From a virus (Duplodnaviria > Caudoviricetes), in the IMG/VR virus record IMGVR_UViG_3300032272_000065, positions 1 through 25,910 of that record: DNA of 25,910 nucleotides. The stretch is one strand, 5' to 3'. The first letter of the stretch is position 1, and each line of letters starts with the position of its first letter. A program made the translations under genes and the position numbers. Below are positions 2,766 through 25,910 of the stretch, piece by piece. The notes below the pieces were generated by a model. The model was given only the letters and a program-made list of their open reading frames with translations. It was not told where the DNA came from and searched no databases.

Positions 2766-3527
2766 ATGGAACAACCATCATTTTTAGATAGCTTAAACGC
2801 CTTTGATGTCATTGATACGTTCGGTGATTTATTCGAGAGGGGTTGGGTAATATCGAAAGATACCGGCAAGATTACAGCTAGATCAACGGCTATTGACCAT
2901 AATCGGAAGTGGATATACACCAATCCAGACCCTAACCGTGATTGCGGTATGATGATGGAGATATTTAACAGGCTAGGATTCACCCCCTCACGCTGCCGTG
3001 AATGCTGGAAAGTCGTTGTTAAGATGCAGACGGTTAAACAGCTTCTTGCCCTGTATGAGTTCCAGAAGGAATTTACGAAGAAGAGTAAAGGGTCAGCTCG
3101 GTTCTGTAAGTGTGGGATAGAACAAAGGGCCTATGTTCATTACCAATACGGCGGGTATTTCTACTGCGACTCACTCGACCAGGGGCAGAAACGTTACAAA
3201 GAAGTTCGTGACGCAGTTAACAAGATCGACCCAACCATTGAAGTAACGCTTAAACGTGGCTGTACCGAGATGGAGATTAAGAACGGGTCCACTAAAACCG
3301 ATGAAAAACCAGCCTACGCCGAAGAAATTGAACGGCATATTGACGAGGCTTTTGATTATAGGAATATAAATGTAGAGCAACCACCCTATCTAATCAAGCA
3401 TATCCTTAAAGAATGGCTTTTATTTGCTTGGGATAGGGGCGACAAAACCGCAATTGAATTTAACAACGGAAAACCGTTTTATACTCAGTGCGTAACTTAC
3501 CACGAGGAGGCAGGAACCAATGAGTGA
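2766..3527 (+). CDS. Hypothetical Cys-containing protein (CRECWK, FCKCG, KRGC)
   Basis: 253 aa ORF with GAGGT RBS, co-oriented and overlapping the next gene. Confidence 0.8.
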   Translation: MEQPSFLDSLNAFDVIDTFGDLFERGWVISKDTGKITARSTAIDHNRKWIYTNPDPNRDCGMMMEIFNRLGFTPSRCRECWKVVVKMQTVKQLLALYEFQKEFTKKSKGSARFCKCGIEQRAYVHYQYGGYFYCDSLDQGQKRYKEVRDAVNKIDPTIEVTLKRGCTEMEIKNGSTKTDEKPAYAEEIERHIDEAFDYRNINVEQPPYLIKHILKEWLLFAWDRGDKTAIEFNNGKPFYTQCVTYHEEAGTNE

Positions 3528-14767: not shown

Positions 14768-15394
14768 ATGAAACGGATATTATTTACAGTATTGTTACTG
14801 GCATTTACGACAAACGTATGTTTAGCAGATGATAGAAACTCCACTCAATTCAAGAGGGATCCCACAACTGGTAGTATTGCGTCAGTTGACTATCCACATC
14901 TAGAGATACACTCTGGCAGTGCGTATAATGTTCATGATTATGACCTCACATTGGCAGCTGATGAAAACCTTAATGTATGCTTCACTACTCCAGACACCTC
15001 CAAGTGGTTCCATTTAACTGTTGGTTATTCATGCTCTTTGGCGTGTACTGCTCAAATATTATCTGGGTCAACTGTAACCGCTAATTCAGGTACAGAAACC
15101 GCTCCAATGAATCACAATGGTAACTCTTCTAAAACCAGCACCGCCTATGATTTGCAGACTGTTCCGGTAATAAACAGTGTTAGTATAGGAGCGACCATCA
15201 CAGTTGATGGTACTGAATTACATGGAGAAGTAATAGGGGCCGCAAAGTCACAAGGTGGAACCGTTGGTGGTGGAGAAAGGCACGAGTATATACTGGAACA
15301 GGGGGTTACACATTGCATCAGATTGTTGCGGGATTCCACTGTAGGTAATTCTATAAGCTCGTTAGAGGTTAACTGGTATGAACACACCAACTAG
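14768..15394 (+). CDS. Hypothetical beta-rich protein with signal-peptide-like N-terminus (paralog 1)
   Basis: MKRILFTVLLLAFTTNVCLA leader; similar along its length to the next ORF; ends YEHTN. Confidence 0.75.
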   Translation: MKRILFTVLLLAFTTNVCLADDRNSTQFKRDPTTGSIASVDYPHLEIHSGSAYNVHDYDLTLAADENLNVCFTTPDTSKWFHLTVGYSCSLACTAQILSGSTVTANSGTETAPMNHNGNSSKTSTAYDLQTVPVINSVSIGATITVDGTELHGEVIGAAKSQGGTVGGGERHEYILEQGVTHCIRLLRDSTVGNSISSLEVNWYEHTN

Positions 15395-15401
15395 ACATAT
15401 T

Positions 15402-16010
15402 ATGAAAATTAAATTACTGCTACTCATACTGCTATTTGCAACACCATGTTTTGCCGGTGACAGGAACCACACCCAATTTGGGAAAGACACTAGCACCGGT
15501 TCGATTTTAGCTATTGGCTATGCTCACCATGAGATACATGAGGGTAACTCTTTTGTTGCAGGTTCGTCCGGTATTCTTGCTAACGAGGCATCCTTAAAAA
15601 TATCATTCAGGACACCAGACACGGATAAATGGTCTCACTTTAATTACGCGGCTGCTTGTTCATTAGACGCTACATTAACATTTACTGAGAATCCTACTGT
15701 TACCGTTAATACCGGATCTGCGCTCCCGATATACAATAACAATAGAAATTCAACCAATACATCTATTTTACTTGGATCTTCTACCGGTGTGTACGTTGCT
15801 AACAGCTTAACATTGGGAGCAACAATGTCAGGTGGTACATCCATAAAGCCTGTGGTACATCTAGGAAGTGGCAAGAAAACTGGTGGTGGTGCTAGTTCTT
15901 TCACTGAAGCTGTTCTAAAACAGAACGAAGATTACTCGGTTGTGCTGACTAGCGAGGCCGCAGATAACCATTGTTTTCTTGAGATATATGAATATGAACA
16001 TACAAACTGA
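15402..16010 (+). CDS. Hypothetical beta-rich protein with signal-peptide-like N-terminus (paralog 2)
   Basis: MKIKLLLLILLFATPCFA leader; start set at 15402 by alignment with paralog 1; ends YEHTN. Confidence 0.75.
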   Translation: MKIKLLLLILLFATPCFAGDRNHTQFGKDTSTGSILAIGYAHHEIHEGNSFVAGSSGILANEASLKISFRTPDTDKWSHFNYAAACSLDATLTFTENPTVTVNTGSALPIYNNNRNSTNTSILLGSSTGVYVANSLTLGATMSGGTSIKPVVHLGSGKKTGGGASSFTEAVLKQNEDYSVVLTSEAADNHCFLEIYEYEHTN

Positions 16011-18945: not shown

Positions 18946-19448
18946 TGGGTATAGATCTAACTGGGATTTCAGGTGTAACAGATTTAGCTGGTGGGATTAT
19001 GGATCGCTTCTGGCCTAAGAAGATGGACGAAGGTGAAAAGGCATCGGCTAAACTTGGCATGATATCCATGATTAAAGGGTTTCAAGCTAAAAGTGACGAG
19101 GCAAAAAAAAGTGTAATGGTTGCCGAGTTGAATCAAGGTGATGTTTACACTAAACGAGCGAGGCCGACAATTGTCTATGGCGGTTTAGCTATAATATTCA
19201 TTAACCATGTAATATTCCCAATGTTTGCATGGTGCGTTGGTGTGGCTACTGTTCTATTTGCTGGGACAATAACTCCAGAGTTGACCAATGCCCTAGTGTT
19301 GCCTTCTTTCTCTCTCCCTGCCGCGTTTTGGGCATCATGGACAGGAGTTACAGGTGTTTATTCTATTGGAAGGTCAATGGAGAAACGTGGCGTTACTGGC
19401 ATGGGCGGGAAAATAGCCAGTATGATTACCGGCAATAAACAACCTTAA
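18945..19448 (+). CDS. Holin, 3TM/GTA-holin-like family
   Basis: AELNQGDVYTKRARP, hydrophobic segments, GVYSIGRSMEK; follows the endolysin. Confidence 0.8.
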   Translation: MGIDLTGISGVTDLAGGIMDRFWPKKMDEGEKASAKLGMISMIKGFQAKSDEAKKSVMVAELNQGDVYTKRARPTIVYGGLAIIFINHVIFPMFAWCVGVATVLFAGTITPELTNALVLPSFSLPAAFWASWTGVTGVYSIGRSMEKRGVTGMGGKIASMITGNKQP

Positions 19449-19450
19449 AT

Positions 19451-19484
19451 AAAAAAGGCCGGGGCAATTCAAACCCCGGCCTTT
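19451..19484. terminator. Bidirectional intrinsic terminator between the convergent late and early modules
   Basis: AAAGGCCGGGG-caattcaaa-CCCCGGCCTTT perfect 11 bp stem; the A6 run gives a U tract on the - strand. Confidence 0.9.
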
Positions 19485-19527
19485 ACGCTCACAGCAATTA
19501 TATATTTCTAACCCCTCCTGTTTTGGT

Positions 19528-19866
19528 TTAACTCCAATCAGATAAAACCTTTCCTATCTGGCCACATATCCATTTAGCAAACCTTGTAGCAGACCAACCG
19601 TTGCGCCACTTCTCATTATTTAGGTACACGTTTACCTTGCCGCTGCCATTATTAATTTCATGCTTAATCTCAATATGGTTGCGTTGCTCAGTTATTGGGT
19701 TGTATGTATTCACCACGAAAAGCAGGGTAGTTTCTACCGATCTTTCCGGGCCGAATTTAAGCGCATTGGATAATCGGCCAATTTCTGACCGCCTCTGTGA
19801 CTCAATGCCTCCTAACCTACCACGGTTACGCTTCTTTTCGTATGTCGCATAATTAGGGTAACTCAT
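19528..19866 (-). CDS. Hypothetical basic protein
   Basis: 112 aa ORF, last gene before the terminator on -; no tyrosine recombinase motifs seen. Confidence 0.7.
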   Translation of the reverse strand: MSYPNYATYEKKRNRGRLGGIESQRRSEIGRLSNALKFGPERSVETTLLFVVNTYNPITEQRNHIEIKHEINNGSGKVNVYLNNEKWRNGWSATRFAKWICGQIGKVLSDWS

Positions 19867-19873
19867 AATTTCC

Positions 19874-19892
19874 AGTTAACAAGTAGTTATGT
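19874..19892 (+). other. attI-like simple site
   Basis: AGTTAAC-aagta-GTTATGT: inverted L and R boxes with a 5 bp spacer and no attC hairpin, at the 5' end of the attC array. Confidence 0.65.
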
Positions 19893-19894
19893 GT

Positions 19895-20104
19895 TCAGTC
19901 TGCTATAAATTCCCAGGTGTCATCACCGCACTGTACGGTATTAGGTTTTAGGGTGTTGCCTCTTATTCTCTGTACCCCATCCCTGTCGCCACATATTTTC
20001 TCCGCTTTCCTCAATTGGTGGGGGGTTATATCAGTGCAGCCCACACATAACAAAAAAATCAAGCAGATTGCCAGAACGGGTGCGAGTTTAGTTAATTTTC
20101 TCAT
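19895..20104 (-). CDS. Small lipoprotein (cassette 1)
   Basis: Signal peptide with lipobox LCVGC; AGGAG RBS inside attC1. Confidence 0.8.
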   Translation of the reverse strand: MRKLTKLAPVLAICLIFLLCVGCTDITPHQLRKAEKICGDRDGVQRIRGNTLKPNTVQCGDDTWEFIAD

Positions 20105-20168
20105 GTCAATTACTCCTGTGTTTAAGTGCCGCCACCATCTGGCAACGGCTTATTATAGGTCGTTAAAT
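20045..20168 (+). other. attC-like site 1 (124 bp)
   Basis: ACATAAC-5-AATCAAGC...TTGCCAGA / TCTGGCAA...GCTTATT-7-GTTAAAT; near-identical to site 8. Confidence 0.88.
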
Positions 20169-20396
20169 GCCTGTTTCAAAGAAACTTGTTTTCCCGCATT
20201 GCCAGCAATGGGCAGTATAAAATTTTACAGACCAGTGTTTCTCGTCAGGTTCTTCTCGGTCATAAAATACTTCAAACTTCTCAACACTTCTCGAAAGCAC
20301 ACTATCCACGGCGCAGTGCTGGCATTTAACCAGCGTATCAACGCGGACTTCGTCCACGGTTGCGGGTTGCGTCATTATTACTTTTTTAACGTCCAT
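20163..20396 (-). CDS. Small zinc-ribbon-like protein (cassette 2)
   Basis: CQHC and CWQC motifs; GGGGTG upstream of the ATG at 20396 (alternative start 20417); stop overlaps the GTTA core. Confidence 0.7.
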   Translation of the reverse strand: MDVKKVIMTQPATVDEVRVDTLVKCQHCAVDSVLSRSVEKFEVFYDREEPDEKHWSVKFYTAHCWQCGKTSFFETGI

Positions 20397-20455
20397 TTTT
20401 ATCACCCCATCACACATAGCTTGTCACCCCTCGCCGGTTATCCTTAATGTTAAAT
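20324..20455 (+). other. attC-like site 2 (132 bp)
   Basis: ATTTAAC-5-TATCAACGCGG ... CCGGTTATC-6-GTTAAAT. Confidence 0.78.
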
Positions 20456-20464
20456 GCCGCCAAA

Positions 20465-20704
20465 TTATTGTTTCATTTCAGCTAACATACCCCGTAAAAC
20501 TTCCACGCTGCCTCTCAACCATTCAGGAGTAGTCTTGTTATTTTCAAGCCTCTCCAGAATTACGGTAGTCAAAGTGGTTGCCATAAATAATTTGTTGGCA
20601 TTTAACCCGTCAATTAAGCGGGAATTACTGGCTTGGTGTTCATCTAAACACACAGCACACACAGCTACGTTAGCTTCTCTTAATTTACATATTGGGCAAA
20701 TCAT
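20465..20704 (-). CDS. Small protein with N-terminal CxxC...CxxC (cassette 3)
   Basis: MICPICK...VCAVC; GGGGA RBS before the ATG at 20704; the longer track ORF overlaps the next gene. Confidence 0.7.
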   Translation of the reverse strand: MICPICKLREANVAVCAVCLDEHQASNSRLIDGLNANKLFMATTLTTVILERLENNKTTPEWLRGSVEVLRGMLAEMKQ

Positions 20705-20732
20705 CGTAATCCCCTTATTGCTATCGTTATAA
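20600..20732 (+). other. attC-like site 3 (133 bp)
   Basis: ATTTAAC-5-AATTAAGCGGGAATTAC ... GTAATCCCCTTATT-6-GTTATAA. Confidence 0.85.
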
Positions 20733-20906
20733 ACCTGCCAAATTATCAAGGTTAACCAAAACCTCCATCTCCTTGTTGTCCTTGTCTGCAACGCATATCC
20801 CAACATCTTCATCAAGATAAATTTCGCAGTTATATTCTTCCAGCAAGGCTAATATTTTCTCGGTAAATTCGTCAACATCTCGCCATCCCTCAACTCTTCT
20901 TTTCAT
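20727..20906 (-). CDS. Small acidic hypothetical protein (cassette 4)
   Basis: MKRRVEGW...; AAGGTG upstream of the ATG at 20906; stop overlaps the GTTA core. Confidence 0.65.
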   Translation of the reverse strand: MKRRVEGWRDVDEFTEKILALLEEYNCEIYLDEDVGICVADKDNKEMEVLVNLDNLAGL

Positions 20907-20929
20907 CCTAATCACCTTCCCGTATGGGT

Positions 20930-21015
20930 TTATAACAAAATAATTAATCTGAGCCGTACAAGTAAGCGGCCTGCGGTATTTCTCCGTGGCGGCCAGCTTA
21001 TTATCGGCGTTATAA
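20930..21015 (+). other. attC-like site 4 (86 bp)
   Basis: TTATAAC-5-AATTAATCTGAGCCG ... CGGCCAGCTTATT-6-GTTATAA. Confidence 0.83.
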
Positions 21016-21040
21016 ACCCGTTCTAACAGGTTGGGCAGGG

Positions 21041-21619
21041 CTAGTTCGTTTTGTTGGCCCATTGCTCAACAATCGCCTTTGCCACACCGTCAAACGTTTT
21101 ACTCCTGTCCCGTTTCCGGGTTTCGCTTGGGGGCATCTTCCACACTCGCTGTTCTCTACCGTCCACAATGTTTGTCGGCTTCAGTGGCTCCAAGTTGTGC
21201 AGAGCAAATCCGGTCTTTTTAGTTTCTCCGTGTCCATGCTCCCACGGTTGCAGATAAAAAACGTTCGGCAAGTGGCTAAATATTACGCTCACGGGGTTTT
21301 CAAGCGCCACCCTGTCACTGTGCAGTACAGCCAGTTCCCAAAGCCGCTTAGTCCATTCTACTTGTGCCAGCCGCTTGTCGTTCATCGGCATCCCTTTTCC
21401 GTACCACCTGTTTCCACTCACAGCCATTGCGGTGCAGTCAGGGTGCAATATTATCAAATCCCAATATCTGGATGGCACTACCTGCATTATGTCCTGTTGC
21501 AAGTGCCATTCTGGGTTTCCCCTTGTCGGCTCAAGGTCACAGCTAAAAGCCTCGTGTTCTGCTTCCCGCAATGCTTTTGTAATTGTCTGGCTCTCTTCAC
21601 ACCCGACTAAAACAATCAC
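21041..21619 (-). CDS. Short phage DNA cytosine methyltransferase-like protein (cassette 5)
   Basis: VLVGCEES, SCDL, WDLIILHPDCT, ALENP, QPWEHGHGETKKT and RSKTF.GVA.AI..QW motifs. Confidence 0.8.
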   Translation of the reverse strand: MIVLVGCEESQTITKALREAEHEAFSCDLEPTRGNPEWHLQQDIMQVVPSRYWDLIILHPDCTAMAVSGNRWYGKGMPMNDKRLAQVEWTKRLWELAVLHSDRVALENPVSVIFSHLPNVFYLQPWEHGHGETKKTGFALHNLEPLKPTNIVDGREQRVWKMPPSETRKRDRSKTFDGVAKAIVEQWANKTN

Positions 21620-21936
21620 TCTTCCAGCCCCATCAGCAAAGAAAATTCATACCTGATCTTTCTAGTCCTTTCTTTAATCCCATCATTGTACGAAGCGTGG
21701 CAGAGATAAATACAAGCCTCTATATCCTCATTTGTCCAATGTGATGGCACACCCATCAGAAGCTCCCCTTTTTTGGGGCAATTAAAATGTTTTCTTGATT
21801 CATCGCTAATCCCTAGATATACCCCATCAATATCACCAAGGTGCTTAGACTTTTCTCTGGTTATCCCCAGATCACTAATCATTTTCAATCCGTACTCTTT
21901 AACTCTCTTTATAAAAAGACCGTTAGTTTTAATCAT
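21616..21936 (-). CDS. Hypothetical protein (cassette 5)
   Basis: AAGGAGG RBS before the ATG at 21936 (MIKTNGLF...); GTGA overlap with the methyltransferase start. Confidence 0.75.
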   Translation of the reverse strand: MIKTNGLFIKRVKEYGLKMISDLGITREKSKHLGDIDGVYLGISDESRKHFNCPKKGELLMGVPSHWTNEDIEACIYLCHASYNDGIKERTRKIRYEFSLLMGLEE

Positions 21937-21991
21937 GCTGTCCTCCTTTAAAGCATATGTATTACTGTTCAATTGCCCGTTAACCTTCGGT

Positions 21992-22078
21992 TTATAACAA
22001 ACAAAATCACTCTGACCGCAAGAACGGTTGCGGCCCCACTTTAGTTCGGTGGGCGGCAGGTGTTTTGCGGCGTTATGT
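21992..22078 (+). other. attC-like site 5 (87 bp)
   Basis: TTATAAC-5-AAATCACTCTGACCGC ... GCGGCAGGTGTTT-6-GTTATGT. Confidence 0.83.
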
Positions 22079-22270
22079 TTCTTCCAAATAATCAGGGTGG
22101 ATATCTTCTGTATTACATTCAATGTCCATATCCTCACCCATTATATCGGCAAGTCCATCAGCAGTATGGTACGTCAAAGGTACACACACAGGTTCGTCTT
22201 TAAGTATGTCAATTACACGAAACTGTCCGTCACAGTAATCAGGCTCTATTCTATATCTTTTTATTTTCAT
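22073..22270 (-). CDS. Small acidic hypothetical protein (cassette 6)
   Basis: AAGGAGGT RBS; stop overlaps the GTTA core. Confidence 0.8.
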   Translation of the reverse strand: MKIKRYRIEPDYCDGQFRVIDILKDEPVCVPLTYHTADGLADIMGEDMDIECNTEDIHPDYLEET

Positions 22271-22283
22271 AATACCTCCTTAA

Positions 22284-22340
22284 ACATAACCAAAAATTCA
22301 AGCGGACGTAAGACACGCCGCTTAATATAGCACGTTATGT
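22284..22340 (+). other. attC-like site 6 (57 bp, minimal 59-be type)
   Basis: ACATAAC-caaaa-ATTCAAGCGGACGT-aagac-ACGCCGCTTAAT-7-GTTATGT; unpaired C and A on top give extrahelical G and T on the bottom strand, as in canonical attC. Confidence 0.92.
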
Positions 22341-22610
22341 TTAAATCTTTTTCCAACCGACAACTTCAATGTTATCTAATTTGTCCAGATCAATATCAAC
22401 ATTTTGCTTGCATGTCGGTTGGCATAATAACCAGCCGTTTTCTCCATCTGGAGGCCAACATACATATTGCCATTCAATACCTTCTCGTTCTTTGCATAAA
22501 ACAAGCACTTGGTCGTCTATATCGTCAGGGATATTCTTAGGGTCAAGCCAACATAACCCGCCGCTTAACGCTGAATTGCTAATGGTTGCGGTTTTAGTTT
22601 CTTCGGTCAT
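22341..22610 (-). CDS. Small hypothetical protein (cassette 7)
   Basis: 89 aa; GGAG and ATG inside attC7; W...P....QVLV...W..V.GW pattern. Confidence 0.75.
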   Translation of the reverse strand: MTEETKTATISNSALSGGLCWLDPKNIPDDIDDQVLVLCKEREGIEWQYVCWPPDGENGWLLCQPTCKQNVDIDLDKLDNIEVVGWKKI

Positions 22611-22680
22611 AGCATCATCTCCAGTTGTTTTATTAATTATCAGTCGCTAACCCGCAATCAGGTTAGCTATTTCGTTATGT
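22551..22680 (+). other. attC-like site 7 (130 bp)
   Basis: ACATAAC-5-GCTTAACGCTGAATTGC ... GCAATCAGGTTAGC-6-GTTATGT. Confidence 0.87.
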
Positions 22681-22682
22681 TC

Positions 22683-22985
22683 TTACCGTTTTTTCCTTCT
22701 TACGGTAGCCGTTCCGCTGCTTGATGATAGCGCACCAACTCCAATGGCAAAGCCAAAGTCATACCACCCACCGTTATTATATATGGCATAAATTGCGGTG
22801 CTATCCGAAAACAGTGATACAAGCCAAGAGAATGGTAAAATCATTCCATGCCACAAACCATACCAAAATCCTACTGGCTGTATAGTTGCGGCACTGTTAA
22901 ATGTGGCGTGGTCGGCGCAGCCAGAACATAACAAAAAAATAAAGCAGATTGCCAGAACGGGTGCGGTTTTAATCATTGCTTTCAT
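22683..22985 (-). CDS. Membrane-associated lipoprotein (cassette 8)
   Basis: Lipobox LCSGC; hydrophobic GFWYGLWHG...NNGGWYDFGF domain; AGGAG RBS inside attC8. Confidence 0.85.
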   Translation of the reverse strand: MKAMIKTAPVLAICFIFLLCSGCADHATFNSAATIQPVGFWYGLWHGMILPFSWLVSLFSDSTAIYAIYNNGGWYDFGFAIGVGALSSSSGTATVRRKKR

Positions 22986-23047
22986 GTCAATTTCTCCTGT
23001 GTTTAGGTGCCACCACCATCTGGCAACGGCTTATTAAATCGTTATGT
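22926..23047 (+). other. attC-like site 8 (122 bp)
   Basis: ACATAAC-5-AATAAAGC...TTGCCAGA / TCTGGCAA..GCTTATT-5-GTTATGT; near-copy of site 1. Confidence 0.88.
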
Positions 23048-23245
23048 TCTAAAAAGGATGCGATTGTCTGGAGCATATTTCGGCTCAGATCGTTCTCGCT
23101 CCATTGGTATTTCTTTACCGTGCGGCTCTTTCGGTGTTGCCCCGCAGCTGGTGCATGTTGGTGTTGGTGGGTAAATTCCTCCCCAGTTACTTGGCACCAT
23201 CACGGCACCGCCACATAATGAGCATGTTCCAATAGTAGTATCCAT
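23042..23245 (-). CDS. Small zinc-ribbon protein (cassette 9)
   Basis: CSLCGG...CTSCGA; AAGGAG RBS; stop overlaps the GTTA core. Confidence 0.8.
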   Translation of the reverse strand: MDTTIGTCSLCGGAVMVPSNWGGIYPPTPTCTSCGATPKEPHGKEIPMERERSEPKYAPDNRILFRT

Positions 23246-23266
23246 CTTTCGAGTCTCCTTTTTAAA

Positions 23267-23359
23267 ACATAACCAGCCTAATTAAAGCAGACGGCTAGAA
23301 GTTTTGCGGCCCATAAGGGGATTTCCTTTTGGGGCCGCTGTTTATTAGCAATGTTGGGC
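23267..23359 (+). other. attC-like site 9 (93 bp)
   Basis: ACATAAC-5-TAATTAAAGCAGACGGC ... GCCGCTGTTTATTA-5-GTTGGGC. Confidence 0.85.
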
Positions 23360-23386
23360 TGCACATACAGTCACAGCCCGTCAGGT

Positions 23387-23674
23387 TTAAACTTCTGCCC
23401 TATCCAGCACGTTGTTTATGCGGTCAATGGAGTTCTCAATAGTCTCCAGTTTCTCCCGCATTTCACTAAACAGTGGGGGGTATTCTCTGGCAACCTTGTC
23501 GCAGCCATCAGGAGATGGGCAGGCAGATTGACATATTGGGTGCAGTTTATCGGCAGTCCTGCAAGCTACCTTCTCTGCTGCGCTGGCAAGTCTGTCTAGG
23601 GCGTTCATAACCTCACGTGCTATCGGGTCTTGTGCGGGTGCTACACATGCTTTACCACTATTACAGTCATCCAT
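23387..23674 (-). CDS. Helical-hairpin/coiled-coil hypothetical protein (cassette 10)
   Basis: 95 aa; GGAGG RBS. Confidence 0.8.
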   Translation of the reverse strand: MDDCNSGKACVAPAQDPIAREVMNALDRLASAAEKVACRTADKLHPICQSACPSPDGCDKVAREYPPLFSEMREKLETIENSIDRINNVLDRAEV

Positions 23675-23700
23675 CTTAAATATCCTCCGTTAAATTAAAA

Positions 23701-23787
23701 GCCCAACCAGTCTAATTAACTCAGACAGGGAGAACTCATGCGGCCTCACCACCATTGGTGGCCCGCTGGTTATTAGTTTTGTTAAAA
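23701..23787 (+). other. attC-like site 10 (87 bp)
   Basis: GCCCAAC-cagt-CTAATTAACTCAGACAGGG ... CCCGCTGGTTATTAG-tttt-GTTAAAA. Confidence 0.85.
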
Positions 23788-23796
23788 AACGCGGAT

Positions 23797-24027
23797 TTAT
23801 TTTTCTATCTGTATGCCATCCCTCAATATATCTTCGGCTAACCAACCGTGGTACTTCCCAGCATCATGTTTTTCAGTATCGGCAATTATCAGTTCAGCTG
23901 TTAGTATTTCGTCTTTTTCAAACATTTTACCCGGCAAAAAACCGATCACCATTGTCACATCCTGTCCGTCTATTGACTTTCTCGGCCCAACATATAGTTT
24001 GGCTGGTATTGGTAAATATTCGTTCAT
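23797..24027 (-). CDS. Small hypothetical protein (cassette 11)
   Basis: 76 aa; GGAGGT RBS. Confidence 0.8.
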   Translation of the reverse strand: MNEYLPIPAKLYVGPRKSIDGQDVTMVIGFLPGKMFEKDEILTAELIIADTEKHDAGKYHGWLAEDILRDGIQIEK

Positions 24028-24052
24028 ATTAGTACCTCCGTGGCGCTATGTT

Positions 24053-24110
24053 TTTTAACCAAAAATTCAAGCGGACGTGTACCACGCACGCTTAATATCG
24101 GTCGTTATGC
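24053..24110 (+). other. attC-like site 11 (58 bp, minimal type)
   Basis: TTTTAAC-caaaa-ATTCAAGCGGACGTG...CACGCACGCTTAAT-7-GTTATGC; related to site 6. Confidence 0.9.
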
Positions 24111-24112
24111 CG

Positions 24113-24355
24113 CTAAAATTTATCTGATTTTCCTGTAAATGGCGTTGTGTATCTAATTCCTATGTTCCCAAAACCATCAACATCACGGCAGACCATGTGC
24201 CATCCAACAATAGGCTCGGTTATATACTCTTCGGCAGTCATTACCTTATGTGCGGCATAACCAGTAAATTCAGGCGAAAAGCTAACGCTTGCGGCCTTGC
24301 TACATTCCGCGCATACAACTCGTCCGTTCATATAATCTTCGCATTGGCAACTCAT
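24113..24355 (-). CDS. Small protein with Cys-rich N-terminus (cassette 12)
   Basis: MSCQC...VCAEC; same GGGGATTACGATG start context as cassette 3. Confidence 0.7.
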   Translation of the reverse strand: MSCQCEDYMNGRVVCAECSKAASVSFSPEFTGYAAHKVMTAEEYITEPIVGWHMVCRDVDGFGNIGIRYTTPFTGKSDKF

Positions 24356-24383
24356 CGTAATCCCCTTATCTCAATCGTTCAAT
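24255..24383 (+). other. attC-like site 12 (129 bp, degenerate/chimeric, terminal)
   Basis: GCATAAC-5-AATTCAGG ... CCTTATC-6-GTTCAAT; right arm shares TCATCGTAATCCCCTTAT with site 3; inner arms pair poorly. Confidence 0.65.
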
Positions 24384-24804
24384 CTTCGGGAAACAACAAT
24401 TCAACCCGCCCAACATAATGTAATTGCATCGCCTCAAGACCACGAGCAAGCTGCTTAGTTTTCATCAAAGATGTTACTGGCAGGATCTCCATAGCCTTGA
24501 TCTTACTCTCGTATGGCAAAGGGTCAATCACGGCCTCACATGTGGCGTTAAACTCCGCATCCTCACCTCTTAGTATTGGCAAAAAGATATGCAGCTTACA
24601 GAGGCATTTTACCCCGTTGTCGGTGTATTCCATTTCCTCTAGTGCTACCTGTGTGCACCACGCATGTAAGAGCGCGTTCTGGTTAAGTGTTCGCGCCTTG
24701 CCAGTGCTTATGGTCACGGTTACGAACTTCTTTTCCTTGAACGCCTTTTTAAGCTGACCGATACACTCTGACAATGTGCGGGTGCTATTTACTTTAAGCT
24801 TCAT
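24379..24804 (-). CDS. ninB: NinB-like recombination accessory protein
   Basis: RTLNQNALLHAW motif, PILR and VTSLM.TKQL...LE pattern; 141 aa. Confidence 0.65.
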   Translation of the reverse strand: MKLKVNSTRTLSECIGQLKKAFKEKKFVTVTISTGKARTLNQNALLHAWCTQVALEEMEYTDNGVKCLCKLHIFLPILRGEDAEFNATCEAVIDPLPYESKIKAMEILPVTSLMKTKQLARGLEAMQLHYVGRVELLFPED

Positions 24805-24806
24805 GG

Positions 24807-25118
24807 TTAATCGTTCCCGTAAAATGATATGAACACATTTTTGTCAGATTTAGGATGCACCGACACAAAGTTAAGATCTTCATGGTAATCAATATCGCAA
24901 CTCCTAAGATTAAACCCAATACCACCCCTTCCGTAACCACCAAACAAACTAGTCCCTTCGCTCCTCACTGTAATCCTGTCGTCAAAAACCTCAAATTGGG
25001 TCGGCCTACCCTTCTTGTTCATGATTAGAAAATGATCGCATCCGCAGAACCTAAGTCTAAACCCTATCTTACTAAGCATCCCCGCCAACTTGTCAGTGTG
25101 TTCTGGCAAAACATCCAT
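24807..25118 (-). CDS. Hypothetical protein
   Basis: 103 aa; GGAGG RBS; tightly packed in the operon. Confidence 0.75.
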   Translation of the reverse strand: MDVLPEHTDKLAGMLSKIGFRLRFCGCDHFLIMNKKGRPTQFEVFDDRITVRSEGTSLFGGYGRGGIGFNLRSCDIDYHEDLNFVSVHPKSDKNVFISFYGND

Positions 25119-25122
25119 CTTG

Positions 25123-25392
25123 TCAACCTCCTCCGTTAAATTCTGTGCAAGTAGTTTCTGGGATTAAATAACCAGAGCTGTCTATAGTCATGCCCAGAGT
25201 TCTTGTTGAGTTCATCGACGTGCAATTATTCCATACCTCAAGCACTGCGGCTATGTTCCTTTGCTTCTCCGTTATGACTGCGGCTTTGGTTATGTCGATA
25301 TTGTTTTGCCGCAATATAGGGCCTAGAAGCAATCCTGTTATGATGACTACACATATAAATATGAAAAACGCTCTTAATGGATTATCTCTCAT
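25123..25392 (-). CDS. Small membrane-anchored protein
   Basis: N-terminal TM segment AFFIFICVVIITGLLLG; AAGGT RBS. Confidence 0.75.
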   Translation of the reverse strand: MRDNPLRAFFIFICVVIITGLLLGPILRQNNIDITKAAVITEKQRNIAAVLEVWNNCTSMNSTRTLGMTIDSSGYLIPETTCTEFNGGG

Positions 25393-25416
25393 GTTGTTAC
25401 CTTGTAAGGGGTGGGG

Positions 25417-25647
25417 TTAATAGTTGCCATCATTCAAAACACGGCACAGTCTACCGCCATGTATCGGCAGAGGTTTAAGGTTGTTATTTGTTAACTCAGA
25501 CCCATCTGACGCTAAACCGGTCAACCCGCAATTCTTCAACTCCTTAACTAGCCAGTGCAAAGCTACCGCCTCGCTCTCAGCCACAACTACAGCGGCGCAC
25601 CCAACTGGCCAGTGACCTTCAAAGTCTGTGCATGTCCAAGCTCTCAC
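25417..25647 (-). CDS. Small phage hypothetical protein
   Basis: GTG start with GGAGG RBS; FEGHWPVG.AAVVVA motif. Confidence 0.75.
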   Translation of the reverse strand: MRAWTCTDFEGHWPVGCAAVVVAESEAVALHWLVKELKNCGLTGLASDGSELTNNNLKPLPIHGGRLCRVLNDGNY

Positions 25648-25686
25648 AACCTACCTCCATATTTATACTGGCTTTACTAGCTGGCG

Positions 25687-25893
25687 TTATCTCTTAATGA
25701 ATTGGTACTTCATATGCAGGCCGTCTCGTTTTACCTCTTCAGCATCTCCAATATTAAGGGCTAAATCAATTGTTCTCCTTGCTCGGTTATAACACCACAT
25801 CATCCTTCTCTGAACACATGAAACATTGAAAAGCTGCCCAATCTTAAATGATCTTTTCAGGTCGTACAGATCTTCTTTGCCGTCCATTTTCAT
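25687..25893 (-). CDS. Small basic protein, possible winged helix (FtsK gamma-like pattern)
   Basis: NVSCVQRRMMWCYNRARRTID resembles the S.S.LQR....GYNRAAR..D pattern; AAGGAG RBS. Confidence 0.6.
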   Translation of the reverse strand: MKMDGKEDLYDLKRSFKIGQLFNVSCVQRRMMWCYNRARRTIDLALNIGDAEEVKRDGLHMKYQFIKR

Positions 25894-25910
25894 ATCTCCT
25901 TAAATTTGAA

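Follow-up and report, generated by a model that had tools for sequence, protein, structure and literature searches.

The window analysed here is the whole of IMG/VR virus record IMGVR_UViG_3300032272_000065, a stretch of 25,910 nucleotides (nt) representing a partial contig of a tailed phage (Caudoviricetes). Rightward genes occupy it up to 19448, and their products are capsid, tail tube, internal virion, tail fibre, endolysin-like and holin proteins; positions 19528-25910 are filled with small leftward genes. Among the leftward genes lies a row of twelve gene cassettes, each with an attC recombination site, behind a simple site that resembles attI; the right end of the contig is reached 1.5 kb past this array. 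With capsid, tail, holin and NinB genes in the same contig, the array sits inside a phage genome.

Cassettes and attC sites

The cassettes and their genes are as follows, with "start inside" meaning that the gene's own start codon lies within the attC site.

19874-19892, + strand: attI-like simple site lacking a hairpin, with a 7-nt box ending in AAC, a 5-nt spacer and G|TT at 19886; new cassettes are predicted to enter here
19887-20162, + strand: cassette 1; attC1 20045-20168 (124 nt); gene 20104 to 19895 (- strand), 69-aa predicted lipoprotein, start codon and predicted signal peptide within attC1
20163-20449, + strand: cassette 2; attC2 20324-20455 (132 nt), the worst folder; gene 20417 to 20163 (- strand), start inside, stop on the crossover-box TTA
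20450-20726, + strand: cassette 3; attC3 20600-20732 (133 nt); gene 20704 to 20465 (- strand), its ribosome site overlapping L'
20727-21009, + strand: cassette 4; attC4 20930-21015 (86 nt); gene 20906 to 20727 (- strand), stop on the crossover box
21010-22072, + strand: cassette 5; attC5 21992-22078 (87 nt); two genes (- strand), about 21936 to 21616, no identity, and 21619 to 21041, DNA methyltransferase-like, PHROG 757
22073-22334, + strand: cassette 6; attC6 22284-22340 (57 nt), 59-base type, canonical G and T; gene 22270 to 22073 (- strand)
22335-22674, + strand: cassette 7; attC7 22551-22680 (130 nt); gene 22610 to 22341 (- strand), start inside
22675-23041, + strand: cassette 8; attC8 22926-23047 (122 nt); gene 22985 to 22683 (- strand), 100-aa predicted lipoprotein, PHROG 30702, start codon and predicted signal peptide within attC8
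23042-23353, + strand: cassette 9; attC9 23267-23359 (93 nt); gene 23245 to 23042 (- strand), cysteine-rich, stop on the crossover box
23354-23781, + strand: cassette 10; attC10 23701-23787 (87 nt); gene 23674 to 23387 (- strand)
23782-24104, + strand: cassette 11; attC11 24053-24110 (58 nt), 59-base type; gene 24027 to 23797 (- strand)
24105-24377, + strand: cassette 12, the last; attC12 24255-24383 (129 nt); gene 24355 to 24113 (- strand), start inside

All twelve sites that a sequence-only reading of this DNA had placed here are present at the proposed starts, all on the + strand, and each has attC anatomy: an AAC core, a 5-nt spacer, an 8-nt L'' arm with an extra base, a loop, an L' arm, a spacer of 5-7 nt and a GTT core (12/12). 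Sites 6 and 11 are indeed of the 59-base type, the extrahelical G and T are present in site 6, and there is one gene per cassette apart from the two in cassette 5. Identity within the site pairs 1/8, 6/11, 9/10 and 3/12 amounts to 75-88% (86% between attC1 and attC8). In sites 3 and 12 (20695-20728 and 24346-24379) the right arms are 88% identical and end exactly at GTT, and the left arms differ; in both, the ribosome site overlaps L', so that folding of the hairpin could control translation.

Clusters of attC sites lacking an integrase (CALINs) are defined by at least two co-oriented attC sites within a few kb. With 12 sites in 4.3 kb, all on the + strand, the array is such a cluster and would work like an integron platform, departing from canonical integrons in two features, the adjacent intI and the sense orientation of the genes.

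Junctions between cassettes

When circular cassettes are joined into an array, whatever follows G|TT in a site is part of the next cassette and is complementary to the left core of that same cassette. Here the right core of each site exactly complements the left core of the following site at 11 of 11 junctions. Over the four variable bases, R' of one site is complementary to R'' of the next in 44 of 44 positions, compared with 28 of 48 for R'' of the same site, and this complementarity was equalled in none of 200,000 permutations. The match covers the weakly scoring sites too, including 9 and 10, and the unusual GGGC/GCCC cores of cassette 10 match solely across the junction between cassettes 9 and 10. 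Cassettes 2-12 each end in a perfect inverted repeat of 8-10 bp, and cassette 1 in one of 9 bp. Because the complementarity holds at all eleven junctions, we ascribe them to crossover of circular cassettes at G|TT, and the observations support an integron-type cassette array built in this way.

The repeat-flanked modules of T4-type phages are shuffled by homologous recombination, and a Red-like process assisted by NinB/Orf might likewise have shuffled the repeats of this array with no integrase involved. A NinB gene adjoins the array, and the four site pairs named above share 75-88% identity; homologous recombination, however, would neither make each right core complement the next left core nor set breakpoints exactly at G|TT between dissimilar sites, and this explanation is scarcely probable.

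Scores and folding of the sites

A score combining a position weight matrix with stem pairing was trained on bacterial attC sites only, none of them from the window; the training sites came from a pattern scan of 4 of 64 parts of bacterial genomes, rich in Xanthomonadales, together with phage M16-3, and four integrases at the training loci exceed the IntI cut-off. Seven of the twelve sites (1, 3, 4, 6, 7, 8 and 11) score 16.8-26.0, site 12 scores 11.8, sites 2 and 5 score 7.5 and 8.1, and sites 9 and 10 fall below 0; the maximum in 200 dinucleotide shuffles of the array region is 15.4, and the top + strand score to the left of the array is 5.0. The covariance-model check suggested by the sequence-only reading was made with our own model of 54 bacterial sites and hit eight of the twelve, missing sites 5, 9, 10 and 12. 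Seven sites outrank everything else in the window, at 25.2 to 8.9 bits (4 at E<0.05), and site 11 is weak at 6.9 bits; both methods match only the + strand sites. When the bottom strands were folded with their cores restored to the circle form, 11 of 12 sites adopted the recombinogenic hairpin, with probabilities of 0.009-0.79, the exception being site 2. The first extra base of the bottom strand is G in four sites, A in seven and T in one, site 12 being ambiguous; in IntI1 assays of attI with attC, replacing the G by A, T or C is reported to cost only 1.2-2.7-fold (PMC2727003).

Reversed gene polarity

The co-orientation that the sequence-only reading had noted for the sites holds, but that reading left unremarked that the genes lie on the strand opposite to site polarity. 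In 12 of 12 cassettes an open reading frame (ORF) led by a ribosome site is on the - strand, and the best sense ORF with a ribosome site is at most 168 nt long. Since the junction rule is symmetric, polarity must rest on the extra base, the scores and the simple site at the left end. Every site carries the extra base in its left arm, the stated polarity (+ meaning the top strand) outscores the opposite one in 10 of 12 sites on the matrix-plus-stem score, and cassette 1 begins at G19886 behind the hairpin-less box, spacer and GTT, with a junction match to cassette 1. No partner box was found downstream of site 12. Among other array heads, a similar box stands before G|TT in 14 of 26 viral and 7 of 16 bacterial cases, compared with 31 of 263 and 3 of 58 background sites, although the motif is short and was chosen after the array heads had been seen, so that p-values are optimistic. 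Purine skew was tried as a strand marker and rejected, as it is negative in 40 of 54 bacterial arrays as well.

If the polarity were misread, the recombinase would use the other strand, the genes would be sense and each attC would merely precede its gene. The symmetry of the junction rule cannot decide this, the top and bottom strands fold about equally, and for sites 9 and 10 the stated polarity brings no higher score. Yet the extra base, which sets strand choice (PMC2727003), is in the left arm throughout, the simple site is at the left end, and attI beside intI in integrase-bearing phages gives the same polarity; a misreading therefore has a very small chance.

Start codons inside attC

All six sites of 122-133 nt contain the start codon of their own gene, and none of the six sites of 57-93 nt does so; in other viral arrays a start falls inside attC in 17 of 29 long versus 13 of 118 short sites. 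Four genes here stop on the crossover-box TTA, as do 83 of 147 viral antisense genes. Sites 1 and 8 encode a hydrophobic leader and lipobox, as read from the sequence, ahead of unrelated bodies; in viral loci L306 and L307, two further unrelated proteins, both predicted lipoproteins, are headed by sites of this family. A single DNA stretch would be recombination hairpin, ribosome site and signal peptide together, a constraint not known from sense cassettes. The L306 cassette (901-1296) is a lone antisense one whose attC is 87% like site 1, and the gene beside it is one that we take to resemble a Mu-type packaging protein.

Occurrence of the reversed layout

A pattern derived from sites 6 and 11 yielded 128 viral stretches, 80 of them with flanks; the viral sample is accordingly pattern-selected, and the same pattern also retrieves bacterial arrays, some beside true IntI. 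Judged by the longest ORF, antisense genes predominate in 38 of 52 viral arrays and sense genes in 10, with 4 ties, as against 1 and 53 of 54 bacterial arrays, with 0 ties. When a ribosome site is required, viral cassettes divide into 147 antisense, 14 sense and 56 unclear (n=217), and bacterial ones into 36, 172 and 87 (n=295); a cruder first count gave 78/39/74 for viral and 12/234/42 for bacterial cassettes in the same order.

Bacterial arrays (class 1 aadA7-type attC, Xanthomonadales) share with the window the attC anatomy, the G|TT junction signature and the attI-like head, and their terminal repeats measure 7-13 bp. They differ in having sense genes with attC behind them (53/54), an adjacent intI in complete integrons, and G as first extra base in 272 of 295 sites. 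These differences bear on the possibility that a block with inverted cassettes was captured from a host chromosomal integron, so that the layout would be a host trait. Pieces of host integrons are known to be picked up by temperate phages (PMC9892861), and IntI is present in 50 of 121 genomes of one sediment-dwelling phylum. However, in a host-lineage test of 40 integrase-flanking regions from that phylum, to which a Desulfobacteraceae genome belongs, and four further loci, the 44 loci gave 12 sense, 1 antisense and 4 unclear cassettes, most loci being without an array. Since bacterial arrays are sense, and since the identified cargo is phage-type and co-oriented with the phage early genes, we consider a host origin of the layout highly unlikely.

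Cargo and exchange of cassettes

The cargo had been read as phage genes, and this is correct where it can be identified: the cassette 8 gene has 37 viral relatives and cassette 5 carries the PHROG 757 methyltransferase. The other cassettes have weak or no family matches, with 9 of 13 cassette proteins lacking a PHROG match at E<0.01 and two more matching weakly. The methyltransferase-like gene has 3,704 relatives. In most of its 37 viral loci the cassette 8 gene is an ordinary phage gene without attC; in L309 and L312 it forms an antisense cassette whose attC, of another family, meets the gene at about the lipobox, and in L310 and L313 it has decayed-looking cassette forms. Compared with cultured phages, the array DNA matched 7 Cellulophaga records, in the cassette 8 gene alone.

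Gain, loss and shuffling of small, putatively host-interacting genes by cassette recombination, the further proposal of the sequence-only reading, finds support in exact G|TT exchange in other phage arrays, but no such event was seen for this one. Among 291 cassettes from viral loci, 78 pairs are at least 80% alike, of which 63 are collinear on both sides (many in overlapping loci) and 15 have different neighbours. For example, L010 and L079, otherwise without common sequence in the compared loci, carry copies of a 339-bp cassette that are 99.7% identical; it is also found in L058 and L036, its identity stops at G|TT at either end, and the antisense frame alone is kept in all four. In this class of phage arrays, exchange does occur at G|TT.

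The only public run with the array is one sediment-metagenome DNA run, and no RNA run is listed. Relatives reached through capsid, NinB and holin comprise 2, 1 and 2 loci, none of which has an array or covers this region; patterns from sites 9/10 and 3/12 gave 0 matches each in viral contigs, and against plasmids site 6 gave only 3 chance matches. Two joints and a loose end at 20728 were considered as rearrangements and rejected, since repeats within this one genome, those of sites 1/8, 6 and 3/12, account for them. In the sediment run, a 4,156-base contig extends about 300 bases past the window's right end (25907-25910).

Flanks of the array and the integrase

Three features flank the array.

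19454-19484, - strand: terminator-like hairpin where the leftward early and rightward late genes converge, likely the end of the array-crossing transcript
19528-19866, - strand: 112-aa ORF of no family, not an integrase, in the place occupied by intI in integrase-bearing phage arrays
24379-24804, - strand: NinB/Orf recombination mediator, the first gene beyond the array, on its upstream side with respect to transcription

A promoter scan gave 9 sites, below the count in shuffles, and an Rfam scan of 19400-25910 gave 7 weak matches, all far from the gathering score. Elsewhere in the window, two tandem paralogous genes of the virion region (14768-16010) both match PHROG 5335 weakly and each has a signal-peptide-like start. 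A 253-aa gene with CxxC motifs (2766-3527) is inserted among the head genes; it has no match in Pfam or PHROG, and a related stretch occurs in viral contig L001.

No integrase was found among the scanned proteins on either side of the array in this partial contig. Where a complete integron has intI adjacent to attI, the window has the 112-aa ORF instead, which was rejected as an integrase remnant, having no family and no usable protein-atlas match. Because this orphan holds the place of intI, the enzyme for the array would have to be supplied in trans or be encoded in that part of the genome which the contig lacks. A tyrosine recombinase is present in 5 of 42 array-bearing viral records (3 of the 11 near-complete ones), and IntI in none of the 42, the 11 near-complete ones included; the five recombinases were rejected as the acting enzyme, scoring 26-60 bits on the IntI model against a cut-off of 265.

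L312 (the same contig as L346), reached through a relative of the cassette 8 gene, is a viral contig with a true IntI of 307.5 bits. This IntI is common to four loci of three phage types (L346/L347, L348 and L349) at 78-100% identity, its genes lying at 2485-3465 in L346, at 995-1975 in L348 and at 6154-7131 in L349, with a further one in L347. In the protein collection the group is tight, with 15 proteins at 78-100% and the next at no more than 50%. The loci carry head or tail genes (terminase, portal, baseplate) and are siphovirus-like and myovirus-like. A conserved attI region stands just upstream of intI, and the cassettes are mostly antisense and co-oriented with intI; since attI directly adjoins intI, cassette polarity is fixed in these loci. 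They share with the window an attI or attI-like site, the antisense cassettes, the starts in long attC sites, the methyltransferase cargo and a cassette 8 relative, and differ in having their own IntI and attC sites that score higher on the covariance model. The co-orientation suggests why phages might favour the layout, integrase and cargo being placed in one operon with entry at the distal end.

Several details of these loci may be recorded. In L349 there are about 12 attC sites, and two of the cassettes carry methyltransferase genes. Duplicated cassettes occur within one array in L346 (111-1600, one repeated) and in L349 (540-758 and 3681-3986, 83%, with different neighbours), and L346 has one sense, bacterial-looking cassette among the antisense ones.

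Relation to published systems

The sequence-only reading was unaware of any description of such an arrangement, which is wrong for attC clusters in phages. Among 10,705 phage genomes, Qi et al. 2023 found 17 CALINs and 3 complete integrons; five of six tested phage sites recombined with attI1 by IntI1 (PMC9892861). Those clusters resemble the present one in being phage-borne attC clusters without integrase and in having a methyltransferase among the cargo, but the 14 clusters of Table S1 in PMC9892861 have 2-4 sites and TJE1 has 3, compared with 12 here. The TJE1 genes are moreover sense, whereas those of the window are antisense. Reversed genes, starts inside attC and an attI-like head in integrase-less arrays of lytic type do not appear in the available text of PMC9892861, and no description of reversed cassette genes in phages was found in the mostly open-access literature searched, including the portions available of review PMC8876359. 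As far as searched, the reversed gene polarity is the undescribed part, and the phage integrons L346-L349 are undescribed too. Known flipped-intI integrons also depart from the standard orientation, but there intI is flipped relative to attC, whereas in L346-L349 intI is standard and the cassette genes are flipped.

Proposed assembly, entry and origin of the array

Taken together, we consider that the element is probably a phage-borne, twelve-cassette integron-type array behind an attI-like site, with all genes reversed, and that an integron integrase encoded elsewhere, in the host or another phage, assembled it and reshuffles it. Cassettes would leave and enter in circular form by way of attC with its bottom strand folded, and new ones would enter at 19886, the promoter-distal end of the leftward early transcript; because the entry point is promoter-distal, capture would leave the upstream genes undisturbed. 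The mRNA-like strand would at the same time be the recombining strand, and for this reason the long attC sites could double as a portable ribosome site and start codon and, in one family, a lipoprotein signal peptide.

Several observations weigh against this interpretation. The window's sites score 7-25 bits on the covariance model, with four missed, whereas the TJE1 sites reach 33-35 and L349's mostly 11-47 on the same model, and the sites must be called divergent because they score low beside the three of TJE1. Site 2 folds poorly (3e-6), and the canonical G is present in just 4 of 12 sites, compared with 178 of 217 in other viral arrays, a set biased by the scoring. The exact AAC-5-GTT head occurs in 0 of 27 other viral heads and was rejected as a general head motif. 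Gene strands are assigned from ORF length and ribosome-site heuristics, no close relative of the array was found for comparison, and contigs of one sequencing run held no rearranged, excised or circular form of it. Finally, the contig is partial, so an integrase may lie elsewhere in the phage.

An array built by an integrase but now largely frozen would account for some of these points. Its hairpins would persist as ribosome sites, start codons, N-termini, stop codons or mRNA shape, which is consistent with the low model scores, the four missed sites, the non-canonical extra bases and the poor folding of site 2, as well as with six sites overlapping coding sequence, four crossover boxes giving stop codons, and the decayed cassette 8 forms of L310 and L313. 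On the other hand, the terminal repeats are perfect over 8-10 bp in 12 of 12 cassettes, non-coding ones included, and 11 of 12 sites fold, both of which drift would erode; we regard a frozen array as unlikely. Under the preferred interpretation of a reshuffled array, its cassettes would have originated as ordinary phage genes made into cassettes and traded among phages, and not as host cassettes.

A broader proposal is held more tentatively, at somewhat less than even chances: phages may run their own mirror-image integron system, in which a phage-specific IntI group and integrase-less platforms share a pool of reversed cassettes drawn from ordinary phage genes, attC serves as a portable start and export signal, and the joining of attC to the 5' end of a gene is the birth of a cassette. 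One gene family occurs here as an independent phage gene and also in cassettes, fused at the lipobox to different attC sites, and for this reason the question of cassette origin becomes testable. The mosaicism of phage genomes is usually ascribed to illegitimate or homologous recombination. If the proposal is true, it would add a site-specific route, by which small accessory genes are swapped at an exact base between unrelated phages.

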